DNA of 64,000 bases from Euglena gracilis. Its lineage: Eukaryota. Made by a program: the position numbers and the translations under genes. The number at the start of each line of letters is the position of its first letter. Position 1 is the first letter of the stretch. Location of the stretch: contig CP154954.1 of assembly GCA_039621445.1 (NCBI GenBank), positions 45,611,847 through 45,675,846 on the forward strand, written 5' to 3'. This document shows positions 38,951 through 62,898 of this stretch, piece after piece. The notes under the pieces were generated by a model that ran no database searches, was not told the origin of the DNA, and saw only the letters and a list, made by a program, of their open reading frames with translations.

Positions 38951-39172
38951 ACGTTCCACACAGAGAACCTCTGTGGTTGACTGGTGGTGAGGATCGTACT
39001 GAGCCGTGAAACACGGTGAAAGTACTGTTCCTGGCCCCTAGCCAACCTTTAAGCAAGGATACAGGTCTCAGAAGGCTCTGTTCGGTAATCGCCGATACAA
39101 CCTTTCTGGTCCCTGTTTCTCTGCTTATTTGTGTGAATTTTTGGGTTTTTGCCTTTTTACCCATCTCAAAAG

Positions 39173-42100
39173 ATGCAGAGCACAAGCCCCAACCCCAAAT
39201 TTGATTATGACTTGTTGATGAGTTCATTGAGCAATTGTGATGAAGATTGCGGGGATTGGAACGGTTTGAATGAAACAAGTTCCAATTCCCGACCCCCCAA
39301 GCAAGAAGAAGGCAATTTGACTCATTTGTCATTGTCAAAAGGCGAAACGCCTTTATCATTGCATGGGGGTAATGAACCCTCTTCATCATCTTTGTCATTG
39401 ATTGTCCGGGATGTAGGTGGCAAAATGCCTTCCTCCATCCCGATTCACCCATCATTGATGCGGCGAGGGGATGAACCCCTTGCTACCCCACACTTGGTTA
39501 CTCATGTTACCCATGAACAAAGTGAGGGGTATTTGCCCTTTGCTCTGTTCACACCCAAAAGATCCCCGGTGGAAGCACCGGTGGGCCTTTTGGAGTGCAA
39601 CTCGGTGGAAACACCGTGTTTTTTCCAACCCCCCCCTCAATTACCACCCCCCACACCATTTCACGCTTTGCCGGGATTACCCGCGGAAGCTGCGGTTTTC
39701 CCTGCATTGCCATGGAACCCAGATATGCGTCTGGTGGTGCCGGAAATCTCTGGTGCCGTTTCTATTGTGGAGGACTATGAGGAAGATTTGAGGGATAACC
39801 TCACCCCCGGTGATGTTTTCCGAATTCTCGGTCAACTTCCAGCGGATCACCCGCTTAGCAAGCAAATTTTGCATGTCCACCAATGCGTTGCGGAATGCGC
39901 AACCATGCTCAACAAAGTTTTGCAGTTCGATGAGGACAATCAAAGGGTTGTCAACACCAAACTGGAATGTTGCTGGAATTATTTGCAGGAAATCGGCAAA
40001 TATTGCCAACACAATTTTGAAAATGCGGGGAAAGACCTTCAGCATTTTCGAGAAAGTGTTGACAGTATTTTGCGCATCCAACTTCCACAAAATTTCCAAC
40101 AAATCAGCGAAATGCTGCATGAAGCGGAAACGCGGAATGATTCCAAGTTTCTGCATGTGCAGGATGGTATGAGCCATCTTTTTGCCCAATTGGAGTCCTG
40201 TTCAACCATGTTACTGCAATTGCAGCAGCAGTTACAAGCGCAAAATGCCACCCCCAAAATGCCGGAAATCGGTAACTTTGTCGCGGTTGAGCATTTTGCC
40301 ACACTTACCACTTCTTTCCAAGAAGCGCAACAACGGATTTTGCATCTTGGCTCGGAAATCGAGCACTTGAAGCAATTTCAAGCGAAAGTGCAAGAAAATT
40401 TTGTTCCCCGTTCGCAAATCCAACTTTTGGAGGAACGAATTTTACACTTGGAGCAAAAATCCTGCCATTGTGCCGCAAATCAGGATGGATTAACCACCTT
40501 GAACGCGAAAATCGCAGATTGCGCACAACGGTTGGATTTTACGCAACAACAAATGCAAACGGACATTGGCGGTATTAATGCCACCGTTGTCGGTTTGCAG
40601 GAGCATGTTTTCGCACTTTCCAAGCGAATTCCCGACATTAGTGGTATTCAAGCCGCTATTGGGGAATTGCAAACCCGTTGCACCTTGTTGTCTACCACAG
40701 TGACGGAAATCCGCTCACTACCCCCCATTTCGCGTGCTCGGATATCCGAGTCACCGGAATTTCGCTCATTTTATGACAAAGTGCTTGGTGACAACAAGGA
40801 AACCTTGCAAGCATTTTGTACAAGTTTGCTCCAAATCGAGGAAAGCGTGAATCGGAATGCCCGATCCATGCAAGATGAGGTTTCTCGGTTGGATGGACGA
40901 ATTTCTGCGTTGTTGGAAAAGCCAACCGCGGAAAATTCGCGCACCACCGTGGAAACCCCCACAAAGTCACTCCACCAATTGCAAACCGTCTCAAATGCGG
41001 TAAAAAGCGCTTGCGGGTCAACTCCGGAATGTGGAGGAGTCCCAAGGAAATCTTGCCCAAGAATTACAATTGGTTTCTGAAAAGATGCCACACTTGGAAG
41101 ATTTTTCCCGTTACCGCAAACGCGTTAGGCATTTGGAGACTGAGGTTGACCGTATTTGCGGCCAACTCCAGTTGGTGGAACATTTGGAAGAAACGGTGCA
41201 TGACTTGTCCGCGAGTCTGGATAAAATGTCCACTCCGGTACCGGTTGTGCCACCATCCACCGCGGTAAGCGCTGCGGTTGGTATTCCAAATGTCCCGGAA
41301 TCGCGTTCTCAAATTACCATTTCTGGAGTAGGAATCCCTACATCCACTGCGAATTTGGTACAACCACCCGCGAAAACGCGAATTGTACCACCTTTGCATT
41401 TGCCAACACCACAAACACACTCTTCGCACGACATTTCCGATGAGGAAATTGGCCCCCCACTCGAAAATTCGAGTCTCCACCAAGAAATTCAACATTCCAA
41501 CCTTGTACGAGGTATGTGCCAACACCCCACACCTGGTATTGGTCATGTGTCGCATTCGCGATCATACCAACAACCGACGGGTTCTGGAATGCCAGACCAC
41601 CCATCGGATTTTCGGCGGGAAACCCGCCCCACTGGGGGAATTTCACCACATTTTCCGCGTTTCCCGCAGGAAAATCCTGCCAACCTTACACTTGGTGCGG
41701 GAAATCCTGCACGGGTTACACATGGAGCGGAAAATCCGCGAAACGCGTTTGGTGTTAAGAATTACCCTGACCCAAACCCCTGGAATACCACCGAGGGTCA
41801 GCGGGTTACTCAGAGAGACTTCAAGGGCACCATCGCAATCGCGAACAAGGTGAAACCCCAATGGGACGGGGATCCAACCACATGGAGACAATTTTTTCGG
41901 GATTGGGAGTACTATTGGGCACTAAAAGGACCCACCCAAGACCCGAATCCCGAGGTAGTCAAGATGGAATTCATCGATTGCCTACCGAGGGAGGAGCGAG
42001 AACGCGCACGCAATTTGGTGATACGTAATGGCGTATCATTCGATGACCTGGTTGAGCAATACGCTTCAACCAATTCAAGTCTGGTCACCAGGATTACCCT

Positions 42101-43250
42101 GGAGAAGAAGTGGCGACAAAGCGCGCCATCGGATCGCAAATGGAAATCCATTGACCTTTGGTATGCCAAATGGTTAGCACTTGCTTCCGAAGTTGATGAA
42201 CTTAGCGAGAAGCAAATGCGTGAACAATTCGATGCGGTTTTGTTGCATTTCACACCATCCCTCGTGAAGGATATCCATCGCGAGGAGTTGGCAGGGCATG
42301 AGATGACTCTTGCCCAACGTTGGAATTATGTGTCAAAGCAACTCAAGCTCACACAAGTTTTGGGACAAATACAGTCCGCTTTCCAAATGCATCCCACCGC
42401 GGGAATCCCTGCGGGTGCGGTTAATGCACTACAAAAATCACCCATGTCACCAAGATCACCCACCACGGGACCGAAAACGCGGAATCAGCGTTCTTCGGAC
42501 CAGGGCACGGATAAACTGTGCTTTTTGTGCAACAAATCTGGTCACATGTCTCGGGAATGCCCGAATCCCGATGCGCGAAAGCGTATTGGAAGCCCAAGGG
42601 GCTCGACCTCCTCACGGGGATCGGGTTCCTCGGCGTTTTCACGTCAATCGGCAGTTTCACGGTCTTCGGAGAACCGCTTTAGCGGTAGTAGGCCCAAGTC
42701 ACCATCGCGTGATGGTCGGGAAACCCGTCCTTCTCGCGGTCGGTCACCTGGCCCCCCTGCCCGAAAACGGGATTTCAACCGCGATTCTTCACGATCTCGT
42801 TCGCGAAGTGGATCATCCTCTTCACGCGAGTCAACGGGGAAGTCCCGATACACCGGTCATGGTCGACGGGAAACCCGTTCACCACGACGGTTTGACGGAA
42901 AAACGGAATACCGTTCCCCCCGTTATGCGGAATCCCGCCACAAATCCCGTTGTTCACTTTGCGGTTCCAAAGATCACCACGCATCCAAATGTCCCAGATC
43001 TCGTTCCCCCCGGCCCGGCTACGGAAATCGCGGTAAGCGCCGCGATGACCGTGGTTACTCCTCCAACCGGCAAAAGGTCGGTTTCAAGATATCTTGTTTG
43101 GAGGAGGACACCCCGGCTTCGGGCAGGGAGGGGGATGAGACCTCGGACGGGGAATTTAATGAGGCCCGAATGGCGGTGCGCTCATTGAATTCCATCTATT
43201 CCACCAAAAAGTCCGTTGCCGGCTATGCGGCCGGTTCGGACTTGGAGTAG
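39173..43250 (+). CDS. Gag-like polyprotein with long coiled-coil N-terminus (one +1 frame change at ~41002-41006)
   Basis: ORF 39149-41080 (ATG at 39173; heptad-rich) joins ORF 41031-43250 if one A of GTAAAAAGCG is skipped. It contains a capsid-like WDGDPTTWRQFFRDW segment, two CCHC knuckles (CFLCNKSGHMSREC, CSLCGSKDHHASKC) and an RS-rich linker. Confidence 0.85.
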
Positions 43251-43286
43251 GGGAGCCCGAGGTCCGAGGGCACGGACCTCTGGGCT
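43248..43286 (+). promoter_or_regulatory. Putative stop-codon readthrough signal (UAG-G plus 13-bp hairpin)
   Basis: The gag TAG is in frame with pol. AGCCCGAGGTCCG (43254-43266) pairs with CGGACCTC-T-GGGCT (43273-43286). Confidence 0.7.
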
Positions 43287-43295
43287 GATGAACAG

Positions 43296-46200
43296 ATGGA
43301 GGTAAGACCTGATCAACCTTACCCCCCCTGCCCATCCGCCTTCACGGTCAGTACCCGGAATTATTTCGGGTCCCCTACCCCCCACTCCACATTTCCGCTC
43401 GGAATGCTGAGCAAAGTGGGAAAGGGTTCATGGGAGAGCTGGCATGCAAACGTATTTCCGCCAGACCCTTCACTTTGCGTACCACCAATGGAATTACTCG
43501 TCCAAGCGGAAATCCGCATCCAAAATTTCTCCACTAAAGTTAAAATTCTCATTGACACTGGTTGTCGCATTGCACTGCTCTTTCGGTTGGGGTTGATACC
43601 GACCCCGCTCTTGGTAAGCGCCAAGAAACCGATCAAAATTACAACCGCGGATAACACCCCCATGTGTGGTGGTGATTTGGGATGTGTGCTCGAGATACTC
43701 TTGCCCATCATTCCGAAGCATCACTCACAACCCCCACAAGTACAACATTTCACCAATATTTGGGGTTACGAGTCCGGAATTCACGGGTCTGACGTAATTT
43801 TGGGATACCCATTTTTACGCCAGTACCGATTGGTTGTGGATTGCCACTCCCACGGTTTGCGCACAGCACCCACCACTTCATTGACACCCAAACCACCATC
43901 ACCGTTGTCATCCACTATGATGACCACCGCTTTGCCCACACCGTTACCCACAATGGCAACACCGTTACCCACCACACCAACAACCGTTTTCCACACCCGG
44001 GGTACGGAGAAAGCCTCCCCCCTGCCCAATGACACACCAACATGCGTTCCACATGAGGCAGGGCAAGCGAGTAGCGGTACCCCCACCGTTCCACTGGGTT
44101 ACAAGACGAAAGCCCAAAGGCCTGAAGTAATTACGGTGTCGAGTAGTCGCCCAGCTACACCACCACTCCGTTTCCCACCAGTTGTGCCGAATCCAGGCAC
44201 ACCTGTACAAGACTCACCGGCTAATGCCATCGACACCCACTTTCACGCACACCCGTCACACCATCACACTTCCTTCCAATGTGTGCACTGCAGGAGAATT
44301 TCCACCCAATCGGATTTCGATTGTGGATGTTTAGTTCAAAATCCGACACTAATCGCAATTCCGAAAACGGAATCCACCACCCATGATACACTTGGTTGTA
44401 GCCCGCAATGCGCGGAGATACACCGAGTACTCCAACAACGCGGATTAGCCTCGTTGTTCGGAACCGCGAAAAGCGCGATTCCTAATTACAATCGCGATCA
44501 CCCTTGGTACGGATTTGATGCGGAATGGGGAAACCCCCAACCTGTCCAAACTCCCTTGGGATCAACCCTTGTGGTAGTGGAAGACAGCCCGCATGTTTGT
44601 GGATCCATTCATTGTGTTTCTACCCTTCAACCCGAAAATCGGGTGCATGAATACGCGAAACGCGTATGGAATGCTTTCAATTTTGGTCAATATCGCATTT
44701 TGGAACGATGGTTTTCCAAAATCGCGACATTGGCAAATTCTTTTGATTTGGCATTGGAAATCGATGCCTTTTCATCCAATGCACATGCCCGTTTGCCACG
44801 TCATTGGTCACAACACTCCAACGCATTTGATAAATTTTGGGGTGATACGGTGTTATGGATGCACCCTCCCCCAAAACTTATCGAATGTGCGGTTGAGAAA
44901 ATTCTGCGGGATGAAGCCCGTGGAGTTATTCTCATACCCATCATTCCGGAAGCGGAATGGTTCACACAACTATCGTATGTATGTTTTCATTGGTGGGATT
45001 TACCCACTAATGTACCGATTTTTGAGGATTTTTGTGGTAAAATATTACCACCCTTGCAAGAAATCATTTTTCGCGTATGTTTCTTCGATGCATTCGGAAT
45101 GTCCGAATTCGCGGTGCCGAGGAAGCTCGGTAGCCCCAGGGATACCCTGGCGGTTTCCGCAGTCATCGAGAGTGCAGGTCAGCATCCTAAGTCAGCCGAA
45201 TTCTGTTCGCGGATTACCCGCGAATTCCACGGTGTGCTGGAAAATCCAGTATACGCGTGCGACATCGACCCCGCGATACGCGGTCCGTTCGGTGTTTGTA
45301 AGATCGAGCTTAAGGATGGAGCAAAGCCAATGCACCGGAAATTTTTTCGTTGTTCGGGAGAACGCGAACAAGCTCTCAATGAAATGATTGAGAAGCTTAT
45401 TCAGCGCAAGTGGATTGTACCCTCGAAAAGCGAGTGGACATCCCAGGCATTTGTTGTTCCTAAACCCCCAGACCCCTCAGGTCAGAAGAAATGGAGGCTG
45501 GTGCTGGATTACCGGTACCTGAACTCCCAAACAAGGGATGATCCCTTCCCGCTCCCCCTGATCGAGGATTTGATCACCAAACAATCGGAAAACCGGTTGT
45601 GGTCAATTTTCGATCTGGAGGACGGTTTTCACCAAATGCACTTACACCCTGACTCCCAACCATACACGGCATTCGTGACATCCAAGGGTGTGTACCAATG
45701 GACGGTACTCCCCATGGGTGTTAAGAATGGCCCAGCCATGTTTCAGCGCATGATACAATGGGTTCTACGCGATTTACCGTTTGCCATTGTGTACATTGAT
45801 GATGTGCTGGTGGGAACACCACCACCATCCGCACAATCGAGCGAGGATATCCTCGTCACACACTTCCACCATGTTTGCGCGGTATTAACCGCTTTTCAAA
45901 AACATGTGCTTTTCGCGAAAGGCGCGAAAATGCATTTGTTTCGGATTATTATAAAATTTTGCGGCGACATCCTCAGCAATGGACAGCGGAAAGCCGCTCC
46001 GAGTAAACTCGAAGCCATTAAGAAATGGACCCCTGAGGTAATCAAAACGATTACTCACCTCAAAGGATTTTTGGGATTAGCCCAATACTACGCGATTTAT
46101 ATGAAGGACTTCGCGAAAATCGCGGTGCCCCTCACCAAGCAGCTCAAAAACCGGGCTGTTGACAACACCAAAGTCATTTGGGATGACCAAATGCGCGAGG

Positions 46201-48350
46201 CCCTTGAGAAAATCAAGGTTTTGCTTTTGGAGAATGTTGTCCTCGAAATCGCGGACCCGTACAAACCATACGTGTTGGAAGTCGACAGCAGCGATTACGC
46301 TGTTGGCGGAGTTCTTAGCCAGCATAATGCGGCGAATGAGCTCCGACCTGTGGCTTTCTTCAGCAGAAAGTTACAGGGCGACGATGGAAAAGGTCAAGTC
46401 AAATGGAGTATACGCGAGAAGGAAACCTACGCAATCGTGCTTATACTCCAGAAATTCCGAAGCTGGGTAGCCAGCAGCCTCGTCCAGATCCTCGTCAAGA
46501 CCGACCATGAGAGTCTCCAACACTGGTACACCGAGGATTTGAACAAGGCCATGTCATCGGTCGGAAGGCGATGCAGATGGCATGAGTTCTTGAGTCAATT
46601 CAACCTTGTGGTTATCTATACCCCTGGTCACACACAAAAAGTAGCGGATCCGCTCAGTCGGGCCCCTTGGTATTACCCTGGGAACCCGGATGAGGGAGAC
46701 GCGACTTTTCATGGAAGTCAGGAAGCTGACGACTACGCACGTCGAAACGACGCTGCGGATAATCTTTTGGATTCTTTTCCCGTTTCACAACTATTCCTGG
46801 TCGCACCAGTGCGAGGAAGGCGCCGACGTGGAAGCACGTCCGGGCCCCGGCGTATTACGCGCACGGAGTCCCCTTCTCCACTGTTCTTTCGCGAATGGGA
46901 TTATAGTCGTGACCCGGTGTATGACACCATTGTCACCAGACTTCGTAATGGCGAAGTGCTGGACAATTACACTCTTTCACCTTTACGGTTGGTTTTTCGC
47001 AATGAATCGGGTTACAAATATTGTATCCCCCAGGACCTGGTTGATGATGTGATTTTGTGTTATCACAACCATGGTCACCCTGGGGCCCCCAAACTTCTTT
47101 CGTTGGTGGGCCGCAGGTACTGTACAACCCTGAGCGAGAAAGAGCTTTACTCACGCTGTTTGCGAATAGCGCAACGGTGTCAAATTTGTCAAGCGGTAAA
47201 ACCCCGCAGAGGTACCCCCCCTGGTACGATGGACTTTTTCCCCGTACCCCCTGACATTTTTACATCCCTCTGCATGGATTTTCTGGAATTAGAACCGTGC
47301 AAAGGAACAGACGACAAAATTTACGATTACGTTTTTGTTGTCGTCTGCAGGCTGAGTGGGTACATTGTAGCCATTCCATGCCAGAAGTCAGGGTTGACTG
47401 CCCAAAGTTTGGCAACTATATTTTTGGAGAAATGTATTTGCTTGATGGGTTTACCGAATGAAATCGTGAGTGATCAAGACCATTTGATTTCTTCAAGGTT
47501 TTTCACCACTTTGTGCGGTTTACTCGGAATCGAGCAACATTTTTCCATTATATACCGACCCAAAGGCAATGGTAGAGCCGAGGCAGCCGTGAAATCCGTC
47601 GTGAATATGCTTCGCCTTTCACTGGCTGACTCGCGCAGCAACTGGATATCAGTTCTACCATGGTCTTTGTTTTATATCAATACCCTACCAGGGTTGGTTT
47701 TACCTCACTCCCCCTATAAATTAGTTTTCGGACGGGACCCTCCGGCCATAGGGGATGTCCCTTCGGAGAGACCCGCCCGAACGAGTGTCAGTTGCGAGAC
47801 CTGGTTTGCGGAAGTAGAAAATCTACGTTCTGCAGTCCAGAAGCGCGTCACTGATATTCATGCAGCAAAACGGAAATCGTTTTTGCAGAATTTCAAGTCA
47901 CCTGTTTACAGTCCCGGTGACCGCGTGTGGGTACGGAATAGCCGTACTCGCATGCAGTCTTCCAAGCTGGACCCCCTCTGGCTCGGCCCCTGTGAAATCC
48001 TAGAAAGACTAGGTACCAGCGGGCGTTACAAGGTTGCATTACCGAATGGTGTTGAGGACGTTCATATGGACGACTTCAAACCATACCTGTCGCCACCGGA
48101 TGGGAAACCCATCCCGTGTTTGCACTTCAAACCCCGTTCCAGATTACCTGAGACGGACGACTTTGTAGTCGATAAAATTATCGATCACAAAATCGACAAA
48201 GGTATGCACCTTTGGAAGGTCCGCTGGAAAGGGTATGGGCCCGAGGAGGACACTTGGGAGCCAGCAACCAGTTTTGTTGGGTATGTCCAGCAAGATTGGA
48301 AGCTGTGGAACAAGAAACATAACATTGATGTTTCCATGACAAGTTTTTGA
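43296..48350 (+). CDS. pol: Pol polyprotein: protease - Dam-like adenine MTase - RT - RNase H - integrase - chromodomain
   Basis: ILIDTGC/VILGYPFL; IDAFSS...WMHPPP; LVLDYRYLN, PMGVKNGP, YIDD; VDSSDYAVG, EKE, TDH, ADPLSR; HNHGH..CQIC, MDF, SDQD, NGRAE; WLGPCEI; FVVDKIIDHK...WKVRWKGYGPEEDTWEP. The ORF is uninterrupted for 1,684 aa. Confidence 0.97.
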   Translation: MEVRPDQPYPPCPSAFTVSTRNYFGSPTPHSTFPLGMLSKVGKGSWESWHANVFPPDPSLCVPPMELLVQAEIRIQNFSTKVKILIDTGCRIALLFRLGLIPTPLLVSAKKPIKITTADNTPMCGGDLGCVLEILLPIIPKHHSQPPQVQHFTNIWGYESGIHGSDVILGYPFLRQYRLVVDCHSHGLRTAPTTSLTPKPPSPLSSTMMTTALPTPLPTMATPLPTTPTTVFHTRGTEKASPLPNDTPTCVPHEAGQASSGTPTVPLGYKTKAQRPEVITVSSSRPATPPLRFPPVVPNPGTPVQDSPANAIDTHFHAHPSHHHTSFQCVHCRRISTQSDFDCGCLVQNPTLIAIPKTESTTHDTLGCSPQCAEIHRVLQQRGLASLFGTAKSAIPNYNRDHPWYGFDAEWGNPQPVQTPLGSTLVVVEDSPHVCGSIHCVSTLQPENRVHEYAKRVWNAFNFGQYRILERWFSKIATLANSFDLALEIDAFSSNAHARLPRHWSQHSNAFDKFWGDTVLWMHPPPKLIECAVEKILRDEARGVILIPIIPEAEWFTQLSYVCFHWWDLPTNVPIFEDFCGKILPPLQEIIFRVCFFDAFGMSEFAVPRKLGSPRDTLAVSAVIESAGQHPKSAEFCSRITREFHGVLENPVYACDIDPAIRGPFGVCKIELKDGAKPMHRKFFRCSGEREQALNEMIEKLIQRKWIVPSKSEWTSQAFVVPKPPDPSGQKKWRLVLDYRYLNSQTRDDPFPLPLIEDLITKQSENRLWSIFDLEDGFHQMHLHPDSQPYTAFVTSKGVYQWTVLPMGVKNGPAMFQRMIQWVLRDLPFAIVYIDDVLVGTPPPSAQSSEDILVTHFHHVCAVLTAFQKHVLFAKGAKMHLFRIIIKFCGDILSNGQRKAAPSKLEAIKKWTPEVIKTITHLKGFLGLAQYYAIYMKDFAKIAVPLTKQLKNRAVDNTKVIWDDQMREALEKIKVLLLENVVLEIADPYKPYVLEVDSSDYAVGGVLSQHNAANELRPVAFFSRKLQGDDGKGQVKWSIREKETYAIVLILQKFRSWVASSLVQILVKTDHESLQHWYTEDLNKAMSSVGRRCRWHEFLSQFNLVVIYTPGHTQKVADPLSRAPWYYPGNPDEGDATFHGSQEADDYARRNDAADNLLDSFPVSQLFLVAPVRGRRRRGSTSGPRRITRTESPSPLFFREWDYSRDPVYDTIVTRLRNGEVLDNYTLSPLRLVFRNESGYKYCIPQDLVDDVILCYHNHGHPGAPKLLSLVGRRYCTTLSEKELYSRCLRIAQRCQICQAVKPRRGTPPGTMDFFPVPPDIFTSLCMDFLELEPCKGTDDKIYDYVFVVVCRLSGYIVAIPCQKSGLTAQSLATIFLEKCICLMGLPNEIVSDQDHLISSRFFTTLCGLLGIEQHFSIIYRPKGNGRAEAAVKSVVNMLRLSLADSRSNWISVLPWSLFYINTLPGLVLPHSPYKLVFGRDPPAIGDVPSERPARTSVSCETWFAEVENLRSAVQKRVTDIHAAKRKSFLQNFKSPVYSPGDRVWVRNSRTRMQSSKLDPLWLGPCEILERLGTSGRYKVALPNGVEDVHMDDFKPYLSPPDGKPIPCLHFKPRSRLPETDDFVVDKIIDHKIDKGMHLWKVRWKGYGPEEDTWEPATSFVGYVQQDWKLWNKKHNIDVSMTSF

Positions 48351-48512
48351 GAACGCATGGGAAACCCATGTTGTTTTCTCTTCTTTTTATCATTGATTCT
48401 TATCATTCTTTCTTTCCGCAGACTTTTTACCAAATAATACTCAAGCGGTTACCCTCACACACCTTACAACCAACAACCCAAACATCCCACCGTACCGACC
48501 CCGGGCTGTATC

Positions 48513-51500
48513 ATGCTGCCCGGCGGAAGGGAGCCAGGCGGAGGACCGCCTTACCACCCCACCACTCACCCTCAACCTGACCAGTATGCGTACCGATACG
48601 GTACGCAGCCACCTGCACGGACTGCGGCTCAGGGAAACCCTGAAGCCAGCAGCAGTAGCAGGATGACCCAGATGCCCGCGGAAGCGCGGCCATCTCAGCC
48701 ATCAGGCTCTCGTCGCCTCCCACCGTATGCGGGTGTGATGATCCACCGCACGGCGGAGACGATGAACCGGGTTATGCGTATGAGCGCAAACCCGGCACCA
48801 GACCAACTCACACAGGCATTGTGGGATGACCACTGCCGTAAAGTTTTGACCATCGCGAATACCCCTCCAGCCCTGTGGTGTATGTGCGCCCAGGCGACGA
48901 TGACCGGTCTGGTGTATTACACCGACCCGGACGCGTCGGGTTTCGCGGCAGACATTACCATGCGTGACCTGGGCGTGGAAGTCCCGCCACAGGTCGCCAG
49001 GCAGGTACCACCTGTTGGCACTTACACTGCACATTTTCGTGCTCACTCCCCCGGATTACCCGAGGAAGAGACGGTGGAAGCACCTGTCCGGAGTGAACAC
49101 CCACGTGTAAAAGAAAGTATTTTTCGATCCCCTGAGCGCGTGCCCCGGCGGGATTATCCTGCGCAGGAGCCTGTGTCTCAGTATACCGTCTCTGGGGATT
49201 ACCCCCAGCAGGCGCCAATGCCACGGGATCAGTACGTATATCCACCTCAACCCCACCCAACCATACCTGACCCTATCCCACGACGTCCTGCGGAGGGAAA
49301 TCCTCCCCCGACGTCTGACTCTGCCCGAAGCGCTCGTCCGCGGGAAGCCGCGACAGCGCCTCGTGCGGCACCAGTTCCCCCGGCACGGGATGAACCCGTT
49401 AACCCGTGGACTGGTCGGCCGTTCGAGACTGAGGAGGACCGTCAACAGTATGAATATGCTGTGACGATCCAACGACAAATCGCACGTCGCCCCCCTGTTT
49501 CCGCTGGCCAGGGATACCCTGCCCGGGCGGAAATGACACGGGAAGAGCGCCAGCAGTATGATGCTGCTGTGTCGGCTCTCACAGGAGTCCCAGCTCCATC
49601 ACGGTCAAGTCAACCAGCGCAACAGCGGGACGTGGCTGTGGCGGAAGCGCCACCAGCACGACCCACAAGCTCTGCCGCCGGCAAACGTGACCGCGGCCCG
49701 GAAAATCTGACGCCGCAGCCACAACGCCGCTCGCCGAGGTCGGAAAATCCGCCCGCGGCGATGCGCGTCGACGCTGAGGAGGAAGCTCCGCCAGCGCCCG
49801 ACGTGACGGCAGAACGGGCACGTCGGGAAACCCGACCATCCCCAGTCGCACCGGTTTACTCGAATCGTGGTGATGCTGAGCAGGAATTTGCTCGAACACC
49901 AAGCACGGAATCCGTGACTTATCCTGTGTATACAGAAGAAGACCCAGAATACTGGGAATATTGGGACCCATATCGGGCGACGATAGAATGGCTGTCCAAC
50001 ACGAAGGGCAAGGGTAAAGGAAAAGGCAAGGGTAAGGGTAAAGGTAAAGGCCAGGAGAAAGGTGGGAAAGCCCCATCTGGGAAAGGCGGAAAACCCGCTG
50101 GACCACCTCCAGGCAAAGGCGGAAAATCTGCCGGACCCCCAGCAGGAAAAGGCGGAAAAGCCGCCGAACCTTCGAAAACGAAGGATTACGACGCTGACCA
50201 GCTGTTCGATTACTTGGATGAAATCTGGCCGAAAATCGACCAGGATCTCGAAAAGTACACGCGTGCTGGCAACGTGATCCACCGACCACCGGAAGCGGTG
50301 CTCGCAGTGGTGCAGGATCGTATGCACGATCACTGCAAACGATTCATCTACAGTACCGAACTTCATCCGTTTGAGGGATACCCTCATTCGGATGAAATGG
50401 TCCTGGACCAGATGTCTGGTTTCTGGGAACTCTGGTTCTGGTTGGGATATCCCTGCCAGAACTTTGGCATTTTCACCGACCGAAACGGTCTGACATACAT
50501 CGATTGTTTGAACACATGTGAAGACGATGAAACATTCGTAGCACAGTTGAAGGAAATCTTCAACCACATGTATTCCGTCAGCGCACTGGGAATCCAGTGG
50601 AAATATTACCCCCTGCCGGAGAAACTCCAGGCGCAGGCTGCGGTAATGTTCACAAACAACCTCCAAGTATTCTTGGACAGCATGTATGGCATGCTGTTCA
50701 AGGTACTGGACGTGGACCTCGCCTACCCTCAACGATACAAACTGGAATGCCGGTTTTGCAAGGAAGTCCACATTGTTGACTTCTGGGGTTTCGGGGAGCG
50801 CGGAAAACCGCCTCCGACTGCCGAGAATGCCGGCAGCCCACCGACCAGGAGATTCCTCCTGCACCAGTGCCGGAAACCCCAGATCGGAACGCAAGACCGG
50901 AAGGTGCTGAAACAGCACCGGCAGAAAATATTTCTGCTCCAACAATACTGGCACAGGGCGTGGATTACCTACGTCCTGGAAGTATATATATATTTCCTGG
51001 AACAGATGACCACCGATGTGGATATCCACAGGAAGTGGATACCTCGGGGATACACCGAGGTAGATGCCAGACCGTATGATCCAGACCGACGCAGGATAAA
51101 CCTGCGGCCGGACTGGACGGGGGCAGAAATCGGCCTCCGGGAACACCTGCAGAGCCAGTTCGGGGAAATCCTGGACTGGCAGGAGTTCGAAGTGTTCTTC
51201 GCTCCCCGCGAGCTAACCCAACCTCGCTACGCAGTACCACTGCCAGCTTTCCTGGAAGAAACGGGGGAGAGTACGGTATGGGTGAGACTCGTCGATCGCA
51301 GTGGGAAGACCTCTGCCTGATCAACGAGGATGAGCCTCAACCTCCACCCGGAAGCTGGGTGCGAGCGTCGTGGCCACCTCCATACCCCAACTCTGACAGG
51401 AGTGAAAGTATTAGCTTTTTCCGCCTGTCAAATGCCCAAGGGTGCTACAGAAGCAGGGAAGACCCGCGTTCTGCAGCCCAACTACACACAGAGGAGTCCC

Positions 51501-53956
51501 CTCTGGAAGCGGAGGAGACAGGAGAAGCGGTCCCAATGGCCGAGGATGAACCTCAGCCTGCGGAACCCCCGGCACGGGAAACCCGTAGCCCGTCGGTCGT
51601 GATGCTGGACACTGTGGCGGAAACCGCCCAGCGCCCAGGATCACCGAGAGGTGAACTGACGCCTGTCCCACTGTCACCATCCTCGCTGGGTACGCCTGGC
51701 GGACCGACCCCTCCGCGGGAAAACCCGCCGGAGACGGTAACCCCTACGCCTGAGGTATTACGCCTCAAGCTTCCTGTCCCCGGGGAAATCCCGACGACAG
51801 AGGAGCCAGTGGAGGAGCCCACTTCAGGGGAAGGACCTGAACGGCGCCCCTCACTGGGCGGACGTGTACTCGGCGGTTTGCGATCACTGATCGCAGTTGT
51901 CACCCCACGTGGCACTGCGGCTAGTTCTTCCACTGCTGTGGCGGAAACGGCCCAGCCAGCGGACGAAACAACTGAAGCTGCAGCCATGGAGGAGGATGAA
52001 CCTCCCCCAATGGCCGCGCCACCGCCGGTGTCGGAAACGACACGGACGGAGGGCGAACCAACGGCAATGTCAGTGGTGACAACGCTACCCGTGCCAGTGC
52101 AGGATGAACCTGCATCAGCACCGGTAGCGACATCAGAGGCACGGGATGAGCCCGTAGCTCCACACACATCGGCCACTGCACCGAAGCGTGCGGACACACG
52201 GACACCGGCACCTGAAAAACAGGCTGCACGGACATCCATGCCCCCACCACAGACTCAGCCAACGCGGTGCAGCGGCGACGCCCACAAACACACCGTACCC
52301 CAAGCCTGCTCCTGGGAAACCCACGAGCGCAGCGAAAGAACGCGTAGGGCGACCCTCAGCTCGGGAAACCCCTGCTGAAGGTCAACGACGCTCGGTGTCG
52401 GGGAAAAGACCCCCGGCCCAGCCGTCACCACGCACCTGGTCAAGCAAGCGTGACGCCGAACGGCGACCCTCGGATGCTCCGGAAAGCGGAAGTCCGAAGG
52501 CCCCGGCCAAATCAAAGCCCGGTGCCGCGCCTTGCAAACCCTCACCTAAGACAGGTGATCAGCCCCCACCGAAAGGCGGTGGTGGTGCTGGAGGCCAGGG
52601 TGCATCTTCTTCTCGAGGATCAGCCTCGGGAGGAGGATTCACACAGGTCACATCATCCGGCTATGGAAAACCTCACAGCCGAAACCACCTACGAAGGGGC
52701 AGGGAAAATCCCGCGCCTCTACGACTACGACACCTTCGGAAGGCGAAGTTGTCATCGACTGGAATGCGATGACTCAGGATGATCCTGAGACTCATGACCT
52801 GAAAAACAGGTACATGATGATCGAACACAAGCTGCGAACAGACCAATGCCTCAATCGGTGGATTGAACCACTGTTCTGTCAAGGACGGAAATGGTCCTTT
52901 GACCAGAATGTCACCTGGAATTATTACAATTCCAGATCACCACGTGTTTTGGCCCAATACTTTGGCGAGGAATTCCTCGTCGACAGAACATCGGAAAACC
53001 GATTTGTGTGGCTTTGCACTGTTTGCCACAGGATGTACAACAGTGCCCCTGACTTGGGATTACCCCTCGTCCATGTGTGCAACCCTGTGGAGCGGAAATC
53101 GTTCCACAAGGATATGTACATACCCAACTGTGCCGCCTTGGTATGCGCCAAGTGCGTGGACAGTTGGACCCACAAGCACAATTTTAGCTACACGGACCGA
53201 GATGGTACGAATGTACCAGTACTCTGCGTCAACTGCCTGCGAGGTACCTTCTGGCACACTGCGGAAGGCGCAGTTCGCACAATCGTGCCGAGTGCCGAGA
53301 AGCCACTGGAGGAATACTCCACCTTGAACAAAAAGTTCAAGGACTTCTTCAAGTATGCCAACCTCAAGCTGGACGACTACCGCCACACGGGAATGGCCCG
53401 TGGGTGGCAGATCGACAGTGGGGCGATACGCCTCGCTGCTGAGGAGGCAGGGGTAAGATTACCTTACCTCTGGGAGACAGCAGACAGGGAAAAGATACTT
53501 TTCCGCCTGTTCACAACCCAGGACCGAAACGGTCGCTGGTGCCTACCACAATGGCCGCCCGAAAAACACGGGATGACCTGGAAGGACTGGCTAGGGGCCG
53601 TATTGCGACCCCATACCGTCCGGGCGGAATGCGCCTATCACGTTCCCATTGACTTCCACCCGGGGAATGCCCCGCAGGTGTCAGCCAACCACCCTCGGAG
53701 AAACTACTTCATCTGGCCAGCGACTTTGCCCAGGAAATTCTGGGAGAAGCTGCAGTGGTTTCTCGCGGAAAGAGCGAGTGCCACCAAGCAGACAGTACCC
53801 GAAGGATGGGTTCGGGACTGGATCGCACCTGATTTCGACTATGACTCGCCAGAAACCTGGCTTGTCGACAGGCCACAGCCACCACAATTCCAGATGGTCC
53901 TTGTGGAAGATCCCTTGGACTCCCGCCATGACTATTGGCGGCTGGAGCGGATGTAA
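48513..53956 (+). CDS. Additional ORF3 region of the LTR element (935-aa ORF plus downstream frames; possibly one ~1,800-aa protein), function unknown
   Basis: ORFs 48513-51320, 51278-52378, 52188-52772, ~52670-52740 and 52742/52769-53956 overlap end to end. They contain Pro/Glu-rich linkers, a (KG)n/GKGGK tract, two globular regions and a Cys-rich CxxC cluster. No signal peptide or TM helix was seen. Confidence 0.75.
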
Positions 53957-54839
53957 TGCCGAAACGGCATTACCAAGCCCATGTAAGGTAAGCGCCTTCA
54001 TGGAGCTCATACACTATATATATATATACACTGGAAGCGGAAATCGCTAAACAGCCCTGGGATGAACCTGGGTCTGTGTCCCTCAGCGCTATGGATGGAA
54101 GCATCCAAGAGCCCCCCCCCCCCCCAACCCATTATACCAGTGACCATGCGGACGGAAACCGTCTGCGGGAGGTAATCGCCTCTTATTGCGTCGTGAAGGA
54201 GCTACTGCTGTGAAGACCTTGGCAGCCGGGAAACCTGGCAAGCCGCTAAGTGACGCACAGCACACAGCGCGCACGCCGTAATAATAGGCCAACTTGTCAC
54301 TTTTCGGCCCTAAGGCCCTTAAGGCTGCCAGACAGCAAAAATTCTGTTCTGGCCTAAGCCAGCCCCCCTCTCCTCCCTACTTTCCCCCCACCCCCGCAAA
54401 GCTGTCGCCGGCAGTCGGTTTTGTAAGTAGGCTTTTGTTTCCTAGTGCGGATATGACCGCCTAGGAGTCTTAACCCGGTATGACCAGGATAAGAGCCTGC
54501 CCCCCCCTTCCACACCTCTCCCTTGGGTTTTCAGCGAATCGCTTGACCAACCCCGCGTGCCTTTGGCACACCCAAAGTGGGTGGATGGGACACTTTGTCA
54601 GGAAACCTGCCAAGCCCCGTTTCCCACAGTGGGCTTTTTCACACCCCACCTAAGCCGAAACGGCTAATAGGTAACCGCGAAACGCGGCTAACCTTTTGCG
54701 CGTTTTTGGGCTTTGGGTGGATGCCACTGTGCGGAAAGGAGAGACACCGAATGGAGAAGTGAACCCCACCTGGGGCAGCGTCAGATATCCTGACTGGACT
54801 GGGAAACCCTGGTCCATGAAGGAAATCGGGCGTAGCCCT

Positions 54840-54849
54840 GGGAGGGGGA
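54840..54849 (+). promoter_or_regulatory. Polypurine tract
   Basis: GGGAGGGGGA lies immediately before the 3' LTR. Confidence 0.9.
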
Positions 54850-55278
54850 TGTGTACCAGGCACGTCCCAGCTCTGTAGGATATCTGCAGAGTGGGTTCTG
54901 TGACGGTCGCACCACTGTGGAAACCCACAGCTGGTAAGATCGTGGCAGACCCTTCTGGGATCTGCCCCTGGACACGTCAGCACTTTTCTCTCCTTCCCCC
55001 ACAGGTGGTATTCTTTACTCTCACAATCTCCAAGTTTCACCTTTGGATTTGTCAGAGGGAAAAACCCTCAGAACAATCAACTTTGATCTCAGAAGAAAAC
55101 TTCTGAATCTTTGCTTTGTGCTTTGCCTCTTGGGGAATTGGGAAGAAAAGGGGAAAACCACTTTTCGTTACTCCAAAGACTTTTCCCTACCATAAGTAGG
55201 CTGCGCACCAAGGCGAAAGCGAAAGGCTTTTACAGAAAGTCCCAAAAAGGGAAAAAGGGAAAGCTTTGGACGTACACT
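54850..55278 (+). repeat. 3' LTR
   Basis: Direct repeat of 38322-38750, followed by TSD CTTAG. Confidence 0.97.
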
Positions 55279-55503
55279 CTTAGGGCCTGGCTCACTGGTA
55301 TGTGGAAGTAGGCATCCTTTAGGTCTATTGTTGCTGCCCAGTGGCCTTTTTCCAACACAGGGAAAATGTGCTGGATGTGATCCAGCTTGAAAACTTTCAC
55401 TTGGAACAGTTGATTTAGCTCCCTGCAATCGCTTATTAACCTCCATTTTGTCTGGCCCCCCTCTGGTTTTGCAATCAAAAACCAGGGGATGAGGTGCTGG
55501 GTG

Positions 55504-57089: not shown

Positions 57090-58999
57090 GGTGGTTGAAT
57101 CCCTCACCCTCTTTACGGATCCAGATTTTTCGTAATCCAGCAGTATTTTTTCTGCTTGGGGTAGGTTCAATTTTGCTCTTGGTTTTGGGTGGGTGGCTAA
57201 TTTTGGTGGGTTTACCCAGGGGGTTGAATGCCATCCCTGATGAGTTGACATGTTGTTGGGGGGGCATTTTTTGTCCACCATTTCAGGCTTTTTTGCAACC
57301 TTTGATGGAGGGGGGTGTCTCCCCATTTCTCCTCCATGGAATTTATTTCCTGGATAAGATGATTTTGGGGGGGCTGGGCTGGGGGTGTTGGACATTGCAC
57401 CCTTAGGTCCCCTAGGGCTTGGGCCCTTGGAAAAGGAATTTTTTTCTCGGGGGATGTGCATGCATTCTCTCCCTCTCTGATCACCAGTCTGGAGGATCTT
57501 GTTTTTGGATGACATACCATAGGGCTTAATGCCCCTGTTTTGCCTATCTAATCTTCTCCATGATGATCTGGTTGGTTGACATACCATAGGGGGGCCTCTG
57601 TGGGTCCCCCCCTTGACTGAACAATCGGGACTTGAGAAATAAATGTTGGAGGGGTTCCTGCCCCTCCCTCCAAAAGGGCCGCTGTGGGTCCCTTTTCCTG
57701 CTGAGGCTGAGTCATTAAAAGGGCCACTGTGGGTCCCTTTTTCCCCCCTTTTTGGCAGAGGGCCTCTGTGGGTCCCTCGGGGGAGTTCTCCAGCAGCTTT
57801 CTTAGCTTCTTGGCGGCCACTGTGGGTCCACCCTGCTGGCCTCCAAGGCCTCCATGTATGAATATGTTTCCATAATCCATGTGTTGGTCTTCCAGGCCTT
57901 GATTGCTTCTTGGCCTCCAACCCCACTGGAAATCTGGGGCTGCTGTGGCCCCCCCTTTTCCCCTGGAGAGGGGCTGTTGTGTAAGATGAATTGGGGGGGT
58001 TTGACAGACCTTTTCTGCCCCTTCCTGAGGGGATTTGCTTGTAAAATTGGCCCCCATGGCCCCTGTAATGGTGACCTCCTTGGCCTTGATTCCATCTCCC
58101 CAGCCTTTGGCCAAATTGTGTACAGGCTTGGGGGGAAAGCCCCTGATTCGTGGGCTTTGGATGTCCAATGCTGAAGTATTTTGGGCCTCCATGGCCCATC
58201 CTTTGCCCACTGAGGGCTTGGGCTGACTTCTGTTTTCTGGGTCTTATGGCCACAGTGGTCCAAGGACCGTGGCCGTCACTGGGGGGGTTTTTGTGGGAAA
58301 TTTCTGGGGTGGGGGTCTGGGTGGGAAGAACGGCCACGGTTTGCCACGTGTCGACCGCATCTCCAAGTTCTACAGCTGCTGCTGCGGCCTCTGCTCCAAG
58401 ACGTCCGCGGCCATGAAATTCCAATTTCTTCTCAACTGCATTGCTCATTGAAGTCAAATTTGAAATTTGATAGTTGACTTTTGAGTTGATATTCGTCTGG
58501 TTCGTGTCCTTCTGGATATTGAATTGATATTTACTTCTTTTGTTGGTTCTTCTTCGCTCGTTGACTCTGCTCCTTTCTTCTGGGTGTCGAAGGGCAATCG
58601 TACTCCCTCGAGGCAGACCGAGAAGGGAGGAAGGGACACCGAGGGCGAAGCACAAAGACATTGTGAGGCCATGCCTTGCTCGCCGGCGGTTTGTTGTGTG
58701 ATTGTTTGCTGCGCTGGGTTAGGAGGTCCCGCTTAGTGCCGCCTCGCCGGAGTTGGCTGCATCGTCTCCGACGTGGCGACCATGGCGCTGTTTCTTTGAC
58801 TGGGGGGTCCCCCCCCCCACCTTCCCCCCCCCCCTGGCCCCCATCTTCTGACCGAGGGCGTTTGAAGACAAATTTTCGTATATGGGTGGGGGGGTCGGGC
58901 TCACAATGTCTTTGTGCTTCGCCCTCGGTGTCCCTTCCTCCCTTCTCGGTCTGCCTCGAGGGAGTACGAGACACCTCGGGCTCTGCACTTTGCAATTGT

Positions 59000-59949
59000 G
59001 AGGCCAGATTGTGCACTGAAAAAAGGGGGGCCAGGGCATTCTCCAAGGAACCTTGGGCACCAAGTCTTTGATAGTGGGCTGTGAAAGCCTCCACCCCCTT
59101 CCATTGACCAATTTCACAAACTTCTTGGGCAGAAAGGCCCAATTTTTTTAGCAAACCAACCCCTGCCCCTCTGGTGGAGTGGGGTCCCCAAACCTGGGGG
59201 GGCACCCCCTGTTTGGTCCAAAAGTCTTTGGTGATAGAAGCAATGGTATCTGCCTTAATGGCTTTGTAGGGGGGTTTTAACGTAATTAAAACGGGGCCCC
59301 CAGGTTTCATAAAGAAACGTGTTGCTGCCACATAAGACATCATCAAATGAAAGGGACTGATTTGGGGGCATTGGGGAAGAGAGACAACTCTCTCCCACTT
59401 ATGGAGTTTTTGCCCTTTACGTTTAATTTTGATGTAGGGTGCCCCCCCGAACACACTGGTGGTTCTTTGGACCTGTGCCAAATCAGAACTTCTGTATAAA
59501 CAGAGGATTCGGGAACAGAAAATGAGTTGCGTACGCAATGTACATATATCAGAGGGCAGGGGGGACTGTGCCAGCCCCAGGAGGATTGGGAGGGGATCCC
59601 AGAATGCACCATATTTCTCCAGGTTTTGGTTCCAAAGCCTTTTGTAAGGTGCCAACATGGCATGGAACCTCACGCCCCCAAAGCCAGGGATCAATAGCAT
59701 AGCACTGTTTGCATTGCGTGCTTGGGCCTTTGAAATTTGAAACAGTTGAATTAAAGCGTCAACCACTTGGTCAGTGGTGGCTTCAGGGGGGGGTACCCCC
59801 ATTTTTTCCAGAATAACCCATAAAAGCGTAAAGGCACTTTGGTACCTTTTCAAACAGGGGTTTCTGCCCAGGAAATCGTTAATGGTCGAATTTTGTACTT
59901 GTTTCCCTTCCAAAATTTTCCTGAGCAAATCATGCAAAGCAGGGGCCAC
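59000..59949 (-). CDS. DIRS-B2 tyrosine recombinase
   Basis: R (LYRSSDL), HxxR (HSTRG), W (IGQW) and Y (AHYQR) catalytic pattern. Confidence 0.9.
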
Positions 59950-62898
59950 CTGGGGGGTGGCATTTTTCCCCCCTGCAGTTGGTGAACATACCCATGTAGG
60001 GGGTGATTTTCAGGCAGGGGGTCCCTGGTACTTTCGTTTTTATTAACTGGGGCCACCATGTGGCTGAATCCCAGTAGGGGGTGACCATCAAAACTTTGGC
60101 TTGTGGAAACATTCTTAATCTGGGGAGAAATTTTTGAATTACAGACCAGGGGGGGTTTGCATAAAGTCCCCCCATGTTGTCCAGTGGGCATTGCAATGCA
60201 TCCACTGCTGTGGCATCCCAGTGGGGCCACCTGGCCACAAATTGTGGCAGTTTTTTGTTGCCTGGTGAGGCAAAAAGGTCTGTTTTCAGGTTTATGTAAT
60301 TTTTGAACTGCTGCCTCAGCCATTGAAAAAGTTGGGGGTCCAGGGAATAATCCCCCCTGTCCATTTCCCTCCTGCTTATGGGGTCCGCCAGGCATTCCTT
60401 TGAAGGGACCCACTTTACTTGCAGGTTTATGTTGTGCTCCATGCACCATTTGAAAAAGGGTCTTAGCATGGAATTGAAGGGGTCCTTTCTGCCCCCCCCC
60501 TTTTGTTAAGTAATAGTAAATTACTTGATTGTCCACTGACAGGGACACAGTTTCTCCTGGTTTGCTTAGGCTTTGTACTGTGCTTATTGCTGCACTTAAT
60601 TCTTTGACGTTTATGTGCAAAATGGAGTTTTCCCTCCAAAATTCCTGCACAATTTCGCCTGCGCGAATGTCCAGCCCCCCCCAGGCATGGGTGCTGCTGT
60701 CTGAGTGCAACTCTCTGGTTGCACTTTGGGGGAAGGGTCTGCCCCCCCAGGTGTCCAGCAGAATTTTTATTTCCCTTAATTGGTCCTTTATCCTTTGGGA
60801 AATGGGGTGTTTTGAGTCCCAGGGGGCTGTGGAATTTTCCACCAAAAAATTTGCCAGGGCATCCGTAAAGGCCCTTAGAAAGGGCAGGGCCATTAGATTG
60901 CATCTGATTTGGCCCAAAATGGCAGCCAGTTGCCTTTTTGACATGTAATCTTTTTTCACCATTTTTCCCAGCTCCTTTTTTTACTGTTTTTATTTTCTGG
61001 GGTGGCACCCGTAATTTTCCCTCTTGGAAGTTTAGTTGAAATCCAAGATGATTTACGATTTGGCTGGGCTGGAGGGTGGACTTTTTCACATTGATTTTGA
61101 ACCCTGATTTGATTAAATCCCTGACGACTGTGTTCAGGTGATTTTGTAAGATGTTTTGTGTTGGGGCCACCAGTAAAATGTCGTCCAGGTAAATAAATAC
61201 CTGGATGCCCCTTTTCCTCCACAGCTTTTCGAATGTCTTCATTACTGACATAAAAATTTGGGGCATTATGTTTAGGCCAAAACAGCCTGCCTGGAATTCC
61301 CAGGTCTGCCCCCCCACCTGATGTCTTAGAAATGGCCTTAGGGCCTGGCTCACTGGGATGTGGAAGTAAGCATCCTTTACGTCTATTTTGGATGCCCAGT
61401 GGCCTTTTTCCAACACTGGAAAAATGTGCTGGATGTGATCCAGCTTGAAAGGTTTCACCTGGAACCTTTGATTTATATCCCTGCAATCGCTTATTAATCT
61501 CCATTTTGTCTGGCCCCCCTCTGGTTTTGAAATCAGAAACCAGGGGATCAGGTGCTGGGTGGTTGAATCCCTCACCCTCTTTAAGGATCCAGATTTTTCG
61601 TAATCCAGCAGTATTTTTTCTGCTTGGGGTAGGTTCAAATTTGCTCTGATTTTTGGGTGGTTGGACAATTTTGGTGGGTTTACCCAAGGGGGTTGAATGC
61701 CATCCCTGATGAGTTGACATGTTGTTGGGGGGGCATTTTTTGTCCACCATTTCAGGATTTTTTGCAACCTTTGATGGAGGGGGGTGTCTCCCCATTTCTC
61801 CTCCATGGAATTTATTTCCTGGATAAGATGATTTTGGGGGGGCTGGGCTGGGGGTGTTGGACATTGCACCCTTAGGGCCCCTAGGGCTTGAGCCCTTGGA
61901 AAGGGAAAGTTTTCCTGGGGGGGTGTGCATGCACTCTCCTCTCTTCTCACTCTCTCTCTGGAGGATCTTGTTGTTGGAGTGCATACCATAGGGCTTACTG
62001 CCCCTGTTTTGCCTATCAGGCCTCCTTGATGATGATGGTGTTGGTATCCATACCATAGGGGGGCCTCTGTGGGTCCCCCCCTTCTTGATTCCACTGGGGG
62101 ATTTGAAGAATGATGAATAAATATTTGTGGGGGTCCTTCCCCTTCCCCCTGTTCCTCCTGGGGCTGGGCATGTGTTAAATACAAAGCCCCTGTGGGGCTG
62201 CCCTTTAGCTTCTGGGGGGCCTCTGGAGGTCCACCCCTTGTATGGCTGCCATAGCCCTTGGATTGGCCTCCTGGGCCCAAGCCCCTTTTGCTCTGGCCTC
62301 CATGGCCGGGGCTGTAAGTTCTGGCTTCTTGCCATGCCCAATTGAAATCTGGGGGAGCCCTGTTGGTGGGCCTCCCCCCTCCCCCCTGGAATGGGGTTGT
62401 GGGCTGAATTTGAAAAGGATGGTTGGTACAGACCTCTTTTGCCCCTTCCTGTGGGCTGCCATAGCCCTTGGATTGGCCTTCTGCTCCAGACTGGGCCATC
62501 TGCTGGCTTCCCATTGTTGTACTGGCCCCCTTGTCCCTTATTCCATCTTGATGGGTTGGGGGCATTTGCTCTGTGGGCTGGGGCTTTTGCTCTCTGGGCT
62601 GGGTCTGCCAATTTTGAAGGTTTCCTGCACCCCAATTTGAAATGTAATGGGTCTTGACCCTGGGTACCCAATGTCTTCCGTCGTCGTCTGGGCTTTTTGC
62701 CCACTGTCTGCCAGGGTCCATGGCCATCACTGTGTGTGGCTGTCTGCTGCTGAAAATTTTCTGTTGAGATGTGTGGGGGGGAAGTGATGGCCACGGTTCG
62801 CCACGTTGAAACCGCATCTCCAAGTTTTCCAGCTGGCGTTTCTTGTTCTGCACTGTGTCCAGGTTGTCGACTTGATAATTCCAATTTGTTCTCCACAT
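59850..62898 (-). CDS. DIRS-B2 pol: RT - RNase H - Dam-like adenine MTase (three homopolymer-associated frame breaks)
   Basis: KWRLISDC, IDVKDAYFH, FGL, IYLDD; SDSSTHAWGG, ELSA, VDN, ADPISR; TDLFASPGN...LYANPPW. Confidence 0.9.

Follow-up and report, generated by a model that had tools for sequence, protein, structure and literature searches.

The stretch considered here, positions 48513-53956 of a 64,000-nucleotide window of Euglena gracilis DNA (contig CP154954.1 of assembly GCA_039621445.1, forward strand, 45,611,847 to 45,675,846; coordinates below are those of this window and features are on its forward strand unless marked otherwise), is carried by a Ty3/gypsy chromovirus-type long terminal repeat (LTR) retrotransposon of 16,957 bp at 38322-55278. 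LTR retrotransposons need gag and pol only, and the extra genes found in a few of them are rare and reveal how elements deal with their hosts. Here the extra gene, referred to below as the cargo gene, follows pol in the position of env and, at about 1,815 codons, is longer than pol (1,699 codons). An original prediction, made from the letters alone, had described it as a coding-like, non-envelope open reading frame (ORF) and as one protein broken by small shifts; its coding character is confirmed by relatives of its last part that reach E 5e-42. The best explanation, to which a probability of roughly 0.6 is given, is that it is a conserved, element-borne gene for a non-envelope accessory protein, broken in this copy, whose product would be a RING/ZZ-type adaptor made from a spliced subgenomic mRNA.

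Layout and frame breaks of the cargo gene

The cargo gene extends from ATG 48513, the first ATG after the pol stop, to the TAA at 53954-53956, a span of 5,444 nt that is not a multiple of three. Its open stretches are 48438-51320 (frame 0), 51080-52378 (frame 2), 52158-52772 (frame 0) and 52559-53956 (frame 2). As judged against intact relatives it is one gene, present here in four pieces. Piece A (48513-51271, frame 0, continuing in this copy to a stop at 51318-51320) encodes a disordered Pro-rich N-terminus, a K/G-rich tract (50007-50183) and globular domain 1 (~50190-51269). Piece B (51272-52266, frame 2) is an acidic Pro-rich linker with a conserved island with PPPY (51374-51385) and an ISFFR motif, and piece C (52267-52664, frame 0), which has no ATG of its own, is a basic linker rich in Lys, Pro, Ser and Gly. 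Piece D (52665-53956, frame 2) begins with a short basic linker and continues into globular domain 2 (~52814-53953), which includes a candidate zinc module (53015-53236) and a C-terminal motif (53660-53743). The two globular blocks, foreseen in the original prediction, have the abundance of aromatic and aliphatic residues that is typical of folded domains, and outside them the protein is Pro-, Ala-, Ser-, Glu- or Lys/Gly-rich. No likeness between the two domains is detectable (best BLASTP E 2.4), and by tblastn the cargo is present only once in the window. As had been claimed, there is no signal peptide, the N-terminus being Pro/Gly-rich (MLPGGREPGGG...), and no membrane segment, the maximum 19-residue Kyte-Doolittle mean being 1.16. 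A six-frame codon model trained on gag-pol puts the proposed frame top in the N-terminal and globular parts of A (A_N, A_glob), in B and in the globular part of D (D_glob). It goes against the proposed frame in two places: piece C, where a reverse frame has 0.042 to its 0.015, and the D linker, with 0.010 versus 0.056 and 0.086 for other frames.

Variation among copies is known from contigs of sequencing runs X1, X15, X16 and X17, the last an RNA library; as thousands of copies are represented, the variants and their depths are not assignable to this copy. That the gene is broken by small shifts stands, though in place of the predicted four or so single-base shifts there are three breaks, of 2, 2 and 1 nt. 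Break i (51266-51278, frame 0 to 2) is a 2-nt length difference at an AG repeat; it is where the tblastn alignment of P0017, a JGI metagenome protein of 319 residues, changes frame, and X1 has loose ends at 51269 (4 reads) that are 2 nt shorter than the window. Break ii (52266-52267, frame 2 to 0) is also a 2-nt length difference. A variant longer by 2 nt, which joins B to C, makes up 4,228 of a depth of 34,472 in X1 (1 contig) and 2.36 of 2.36 in X16, and the window form is that of X15 and X17 and of most of the X1 depth. Depth at this point is about one tenth of that elsewhere, and therefore only close kin of this copy are represented there; the position of the break is less certain, both frames being open over 52158-52378. 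Break iii (52664-52666, frame 0 to 2) is a 1-nt difference in a G run. Copies longer by one G, in which frame 0 then enters frame 2, account for 225,899 of a depth of 285,614 in X1, 6.7 of 6.7 in X15 and 12.3 of 16.9 in X16, the window state without the extra base being about a fifth of the X1 depth.

Proteins of other origin bridge the same points. P0017 matches piece A with 84% identity (178/211) and continues into piece B with 76% (86/113) in one frame; P0005, the product of a Euglena gracilis transcript, has matches in one frame on either side of break iii, to the last part of piece C and the first part of D; and P0006 combines the D domain with the ISFFR motif known from piece B. Together with the length variants of the other runs they bear out the proposal of a single frameshifted protein. 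Because the window's state at all three breaks recurs in contigs of other runs, the states are real variants of the family. Of the two origins that had been offered for the breaks, decay in this copy is accordingly favoured over miscall, though a polishing error in this one copy is possible. The claim that pol has no such breaks also proved right, as its reading frame (43251-48350) is uninterrupted, though ORF1 and gag, further upstream, also look split at an A5 run. Among the 40 best-supported of 821 substitutions, 10 fall in the cargo (5 synonymous) and 29 in pol (11 synonymous), numbers too small for a claim on dN/dS; they are compatible with similar constraint on the two but too thin to count. 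X1 depth is ~0.27-0.76 million over the cargo and 0.83-1.73 million over pol. The element family is extremely abundant, with 77,987 contigs of X1 aligning over 43000-54849. Rare internally deleted forms also occur in X1, with joints of 48392 to 51110 and 51036 to 54086 that leave out most of piece A or pieces B-D.

A T-rich polypyrimidine tract, the strongest in the element, lies between pol and the cargo and leads up to a CAG at 48419-48421 (48376-48421 in all). The tract itself, at 48376-48415, is 85% pyrimidine and 65% T, and is the most T-rich of the six tracts of the element with at least 80% pyrimidine. CGCAG (48417-48421) ends 71 nt after pol, and another 92 nt, free of any earlier ATG, lead from there to ATG 48513. 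Tract and CAG have the look of a putative acceptor for 3' splicing or for a spliced leader, and a subgenomic mRNA made by splicing would be in keeping with them. Euglenids trans-splice extensively, according to the available part of a preprint (bioRxiv 10.64898/2026.05.21.726589). All 30 bins are covered by contigs of X17, the RNA library, and one such contig spans the end of pol and the start of piece A (47911-48811), which fits genomic RNA or DNA carry-over.

Relatives of the protein and its Cys/His module

A full HMMER scan of 1,835,955,588 representative proteins with piece D gave 12 relatives at E 5.2e-42 to 2.2e-4, one at E <= 1e-30 and eight at E <= 1e-10, with identities of 27-42%. Ten of the 12 comprise two Euglena gracilis transcripts (EukProt), four ENA and four JGI metagenome proteins, and the eight from metagenomes are single-member clusters from contigs of 957-3,715 bp. 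Ten Cys/His columns (C153, C156, H157, H172, C174, C191, C196, C199, C223 and C226) are invariant in the sequences that cover them (6/6 to 8/8). A second strongly conserved block, at ~53660-53743, has the motif P-G-x-x-x-Q...N-H-P...I-W-P common to the relatives; in P0007 the C-terminus is conserved right to the stop, and several relatives have a basic Lys/Gly/Pro lead-in resembling that of the window. By these sequence comparisons, domain D is under long-term purifying selection and is an undescribed protein family, present in Euglena gracilis transcripts and environmental contigs.

For domain A the only close relative is P0017, and distant ones were found neither in the ESM Atlas nor in a comparison of piece A residues 585-960 with longer proteins. 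The PPPY motif of piece B is inside a 27-residue island of an otherwise variable linker, and the island is identical in P0017. Several other searches returned nothing: a word-indexed search with piece D among proteins of near length gave no match, a metagenome pattern scan with alignment A2 gave 244 pattern matches of which 0 were confirmed, and scans of viral contigs found nothing. The best ESM Atlas scores were 0.83 for D, where some of the clusters listed have RING names, and 0.75 for A, both within the range of shuffled proteins. The sole locus from 27 pattern matches to domain A, L001 (26% over 91 residues), was rejected as chance, a single 8-residue pattern seed; the ORFs neighbouring it, for a HET-like protein and an indoleamine-dioxygenase-like protein, look fungal. 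Pfam, with sub-pieces of the cargo and the 12 family members and E up to 10, had nothing near a cut-off, NCBIfam had no match for A or D, and the best values in a sequence search of PDB were E 0.21 (A1 profile) and 2.3 (domain A).

The Cys spacing noticed originally in the last region is real. It consists of CTVCH (53015-53029), HVC (53072-53080), NC-x4-C-x2-C (53126-53155) and CVNC (53225-53236), and holds eight conserved residues in four ligand pairs, C153/C156, H172/C174, C196/C199 and C223/C226, with H157 and C191 as invariant extras. An AlphaFold model of piece D, made with 12 sequences, has a mean predicted local distance difference test (pLDDT) of 60.4, but most of the Cys/His module (61-88 per ten-residue block over residues 131-250) and parts of a helical region have values from the 60s into the 80s; a helix begins at the third ligand pair. 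A separate model of the Cys/His part is poorer (pLDDT 52.3). The structure prediction and Foldseek comparison that had been proposed thus yielded weak models, and in Foldseek 0 matches of piece D to PDB or BFVD at E <= 0.001. In the VIA wide search the whole D model had a best Z of 3.8, on its helical part; the Cys/His sub-domain model had Z values of 2.6-3.7, and among the 50 rows listed nearly all were ZZ, RING, U-box or PHD-type fingers.

The module, as modelled, fits a cross-brace two-zinc finger. With RING, ZZ and U-box fingers, including those of baculovirus IE2, PE38 and CG30, it has in common the four Cys/His pairs C-x2-C, H-x-C, C-x2-C and C-x2-C, and the weak BFVD matches of piece D include IE2 and PE38. 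It differs from them in that no Pfam model is reached, in Z values of at most 3.7 and Foldseek E of at least 0.27, and in H157 and C191, which have no counterpart there. Because of these two extra invariant ligands and a gap of 21 residues between C174 and C196 it is not classed as a canonical RING, and RING/ZZ-like is used as a working term. The earlier label of RING/PHD-like is a fair description of the spacing, while membership in such a family is not supported.

What the gene may do, and the alternatives

Under the explanation favoured here, a subgenomic mRNA would arise by cis-splicing or spliced-leader trans-splicing at CAG 48419-48421, with ATG 48513 becoming its first AUG. The protein may be a nuclear, nucleic-acid- or chromatin-associated adaptor by virtue of its basic tracts and zinc module; the Cys/His module would fold as a two-zinc cross-brace RING/ZZ finger and recruit a host partner, for instance ubiquitin machinery or a histone tail, to the benefit of the element. 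Such a biochemical role as a RING-like adaptor is put forward with a perhaps. Because an element with identical LTRs carries a broken gene, the protein would be either supplied in trans by intact copies or dispensable for individual rounds of transposition. A fuller version, rather unlikely as a whole, would have a counter-defence or chromatin-handling protein, a scaffold of ~1,800 residues whose module hijacks a ubiquitin(-like) system or reads histone tails and so protects insertions where CpG methylation is the default, with a spliced-leader mRNA and with new folds for both domains; if true, it would stand to retrotransposons as accessory proteins do to retroviruses and IE2/PE38 to baculoviruses.

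Several observations weigh against this account. RING profiles fall well short of their cut-offs (zf-C3HC4_4 at 11.4 bits versus 30, E 0.36; zf-RING_5 at 9.6 versus 27.9), and among the 12 scanned family members a single zf_RING-like match appeared, at E 1.8. The canonical RING consensus has 2-3 residues between its fourth and fifth ligands, a distance that is 21 here, between the second and third pairs. The structure models are weak by their means of 60.4 and 52.3, all fold matches have Z < 5, and by the VIA notes values of Z < 8 may reflect a common arrangement. The 12 relatives of D are known from protein sequences and may or may not sit in retrotransposons. The contigs of the RNA library may be carried-over DNA, and no splice or spliced-leader junction was seen among 24 of 1,266 loose ends and 15 of 151 joints, in contigs, which cannot show RNA ends. 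Lastly, the GC content at third codon positions (GC3), 0.66 in both globular domains versus 0.52 in pol, hints at a different origin.

The last of these points also speaks for a captured host gene, in which the cargo, or at least its C-terminal domain, would be a euglenid cellular gene that was transduced and has no role in the life cycle of the element, hence its decay. To this possibility a low though not negligible probability is assigned. The existence of relatives as Euglena gracilis transcripts, the three breaks in the cargo set beside zero in pol, and an X1 depth lower over the cargo than over pol would all be in keeping with it. Yet those relatives are many, divergent (27-42%) and fragmentary, and have in common a low-complexity basic lead-in, as a transposon family would, with no match to a Pfam or NCBIfam family. 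The ORF also comes with an acceptor-like signal and a first ATG of its own. Contigs of four runs that are 90-99% like the window cover both pol and cargo, and the association therefore lasted through the diversification of the family. It is distinctly unlikely that the cargo is another structural or assembly protein, be it Gag-like, nucleocapsid-like or a late-domain adaptor, and not a regulator. Its basic tracts, K/G-rich and K/P-rich, would bind RNA, its zinc modules would be knuckles, and PPPY, which lies in the island identical in P0017, would recruit budding or trafficking factors, PPxY being a viral late domain motif. Residues 250-360 of the D model have weak matches to several retroviral capsid N-terminal domains (Z 2.3-2.8), but such Z values are noise by the notes of the tool, a long Gag complete with CCHC knuckle is already encoded elsewhere in the element, and the late-domain reading of PPPY is by analogy with viral late domains.

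That there is no gene here, and that the open frames are due to chance in GC-rich, stop-poor sequence or belong to a fully dead remnant, is very improbable. The opposite strand is open for 535 codons (49605-51212), pieces B and C are of low complexity, and a reverse frame is slightly better than the proposed one in piece C; against these stand the strength of the relatives with their invariant Cys/His residues, a metagenome protein (P0017) that spans pieces A and B, and the top rank of the proposed frame in most parts, so that the idea is contradicted for pieces A and D. Scarcely credible is a divergent envelope or fusogen gene in the style of errantiviruses, for which position between pol and the 3' LTR is the sole support; there is neither signal peptide nor hydrophobic segment, Pfam has no envelope family for it, and BFVD gave 0 matches at E <= 0.001, in agreement with the non-envelope nature originally proposed.

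An accessory gene in this position has parallels. Extra ORFs after pol are known in plant LTR retrotransposons (PMC7264820, PMC11963269), including the long region from pol to 3' LTR of Retand. In what is available of these accounts they resemble the cargo in being sense-strand frames between pol and 3' LTR of Ty3/gypsy elements, with no clear envelope character and with function unknown there. In contrast to them, by a comparison of descriptions, the cargo is in a euglenid, has ~1,815 codons, and encodes two orphan globular domains and a ten-residue Cys/His module. Bdelloid rotifer LTR retrotransposons captured additional ORFs common to several types of retroelement (PMC5408684, from the part available); these too are third ORFs downstream of pol, not always envelope and apparently modular. 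Their hosts are animals, whereas relatives of the cargo were found only in Euglena transcripts and metagenome contigs.

Closest in host are the DAM-LTR and EpiLTR elements of Euglena, LTR elements with Dam and a chromodomain, described in a preprint (bioRxiv 10.64898/2026.05.21.726589) that reports heavy CpG methylation of the Euglena genome. Retrotransposons with epigenetic enzymes are by now a known feature of Euglena-type genomes. The element considered here is similarly Ty3/gypsy-like, and its pol has a chromodomain and, more weakly, a Dam-like stretch. Its old flanking repeats are CpG-depleted (observed/expected 0.27-0.45), in line with such methylation and lower than its own gag-pol (~1.0), the corresponding values being 0.81-0.94 for the cargo, 0.66 for the 3' untranslated part and 0.41 for the LTR. 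This depletion, the likeness to the Dam-plus-chromodomain elements, the Euglena gracilis transcripts among the relatives and the acceptor-like signal all point to a euglenid host. Unlike in those elements, the Dam-like match, an adenine methyltransferase family (PF05869) at pol aa 493-573 (44727-44969), is sub-threshold (E 1.5e-4, 22 bits versus a cut-off of 28.1), and Pfam scans of ORF1, gag, pol and the cargo pieces found no cytosine DNA methyltransferase (DNMT) family, which an EpiLTR would need. The passages of the preprint considered here do not mention a large ORF after pol, though its supplements may show one. The literature searched has no description of the cargo ORF or its family, though domain maps with it may be in the supplements of that preprint.

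An extra gene larger than pol, in an extremely abundant and apparently still mobile family of elements, encodes a protein family that is unnamed in databases and clearly conserved over the long term. A conserved zinc-finger accessory protein would offer a well-defined starting point, open to cloning, for work on the persistence of such elements, and the two orphan domains are worthwhile targets for structure determination.

The carrier element and its surroundings

The two LTRs, at 38322-38750 (429 bp, beginning with TG) and 54850-55278, are in direct orientation and identical at 429 of 429 positions by self-BLAST of the window, and they are flanked by target-site duplications CTTAG at 38317-38321 and 55279-55283. 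The flanks (35583-38321 and 55279-55503) belong to an older repeat that continues on both sides, and a paralogue in the same window provides the empty site, as it is uninterrupted at 58596-61561 with a single CTTAG at 61337-61341. Because of this uninterrupted second copy, 38322-55278 is identified as an inserted LTR retrotransposon, and it is a very young insertion documented by the empty site. At its 5' end, 38745-38945 consists of ~3.5 tandem repeats of a 56-bp unit that contains the primer-binding-site-like TGGTAGCAG directly after the LTR; as that sequence is inside the repeated unit, the element has several tandem copies of it. A polypurine tract, GGGAGGGGGA (54840-54849), is directly upstream of the 3' LTR.

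ORF1 (39137-41080, frame 2) is open for 647 codons with a first ATG at 39173, has a coiled coil, and is probably the N-terminal part of Gag. The gag frame (41004-43250, frame 0, stop TAG) has a CCHC zinc knuckle (Pfam zf-CCHC, E 1.5e-6). The two overlap by 77 nt and read as a single continuous coiled-coil protein across the A5 run at 41002-41006, where there is either a programmed +1 shift or one more frame break of this copy, the fourth. Behind one stop, pol continues in the gag frame and ends at TGA 48348-48350. A hairpin-capable GGTCCG...CGGACC begins 8 nt past the gag TAG (43248-43290); this arrangement suggests that gag-pol is made by stop-codon read-through.

By Pfam the order of domains in pol is RVT_1 (aa 737-905), RT_RNaseH (977-1117), Integrase_H2C2 (1259-1319) and rve (1340-1437), followed at the C-terminus by SH3_Tf2-1 (1556-1607) and Chromo (1638-1673). 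The presence of reverse transcriptase, RNase H, integrase and a C-terminal chromodomain makes it therefore a Ty3/gypsy chromovirus-type element. Upstream of the reverse transcriptase, where an aspartic protease would be expected, no Pfam protease family appears at E <= 1 in pol aa 1-439, though a DTG motif is visible in the translation of pol. The Dam-like stretch is situated between this putative protease region and the reverse transcriptase.

Rfam found no family in the window. The older repeat, whose two copies in the window are ~92-94% identical, carries an ORF with an RVT_1 reverse transcriptase and several long ORFs without Pfam matches, and the ORF at 60466-62910 on the reverse strand is grouped with its copy at 58596-61561. 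Other direct repeats of 0.2-1.5 kb and 92-95% identity are present at 28610-31636 and 2392-3882.

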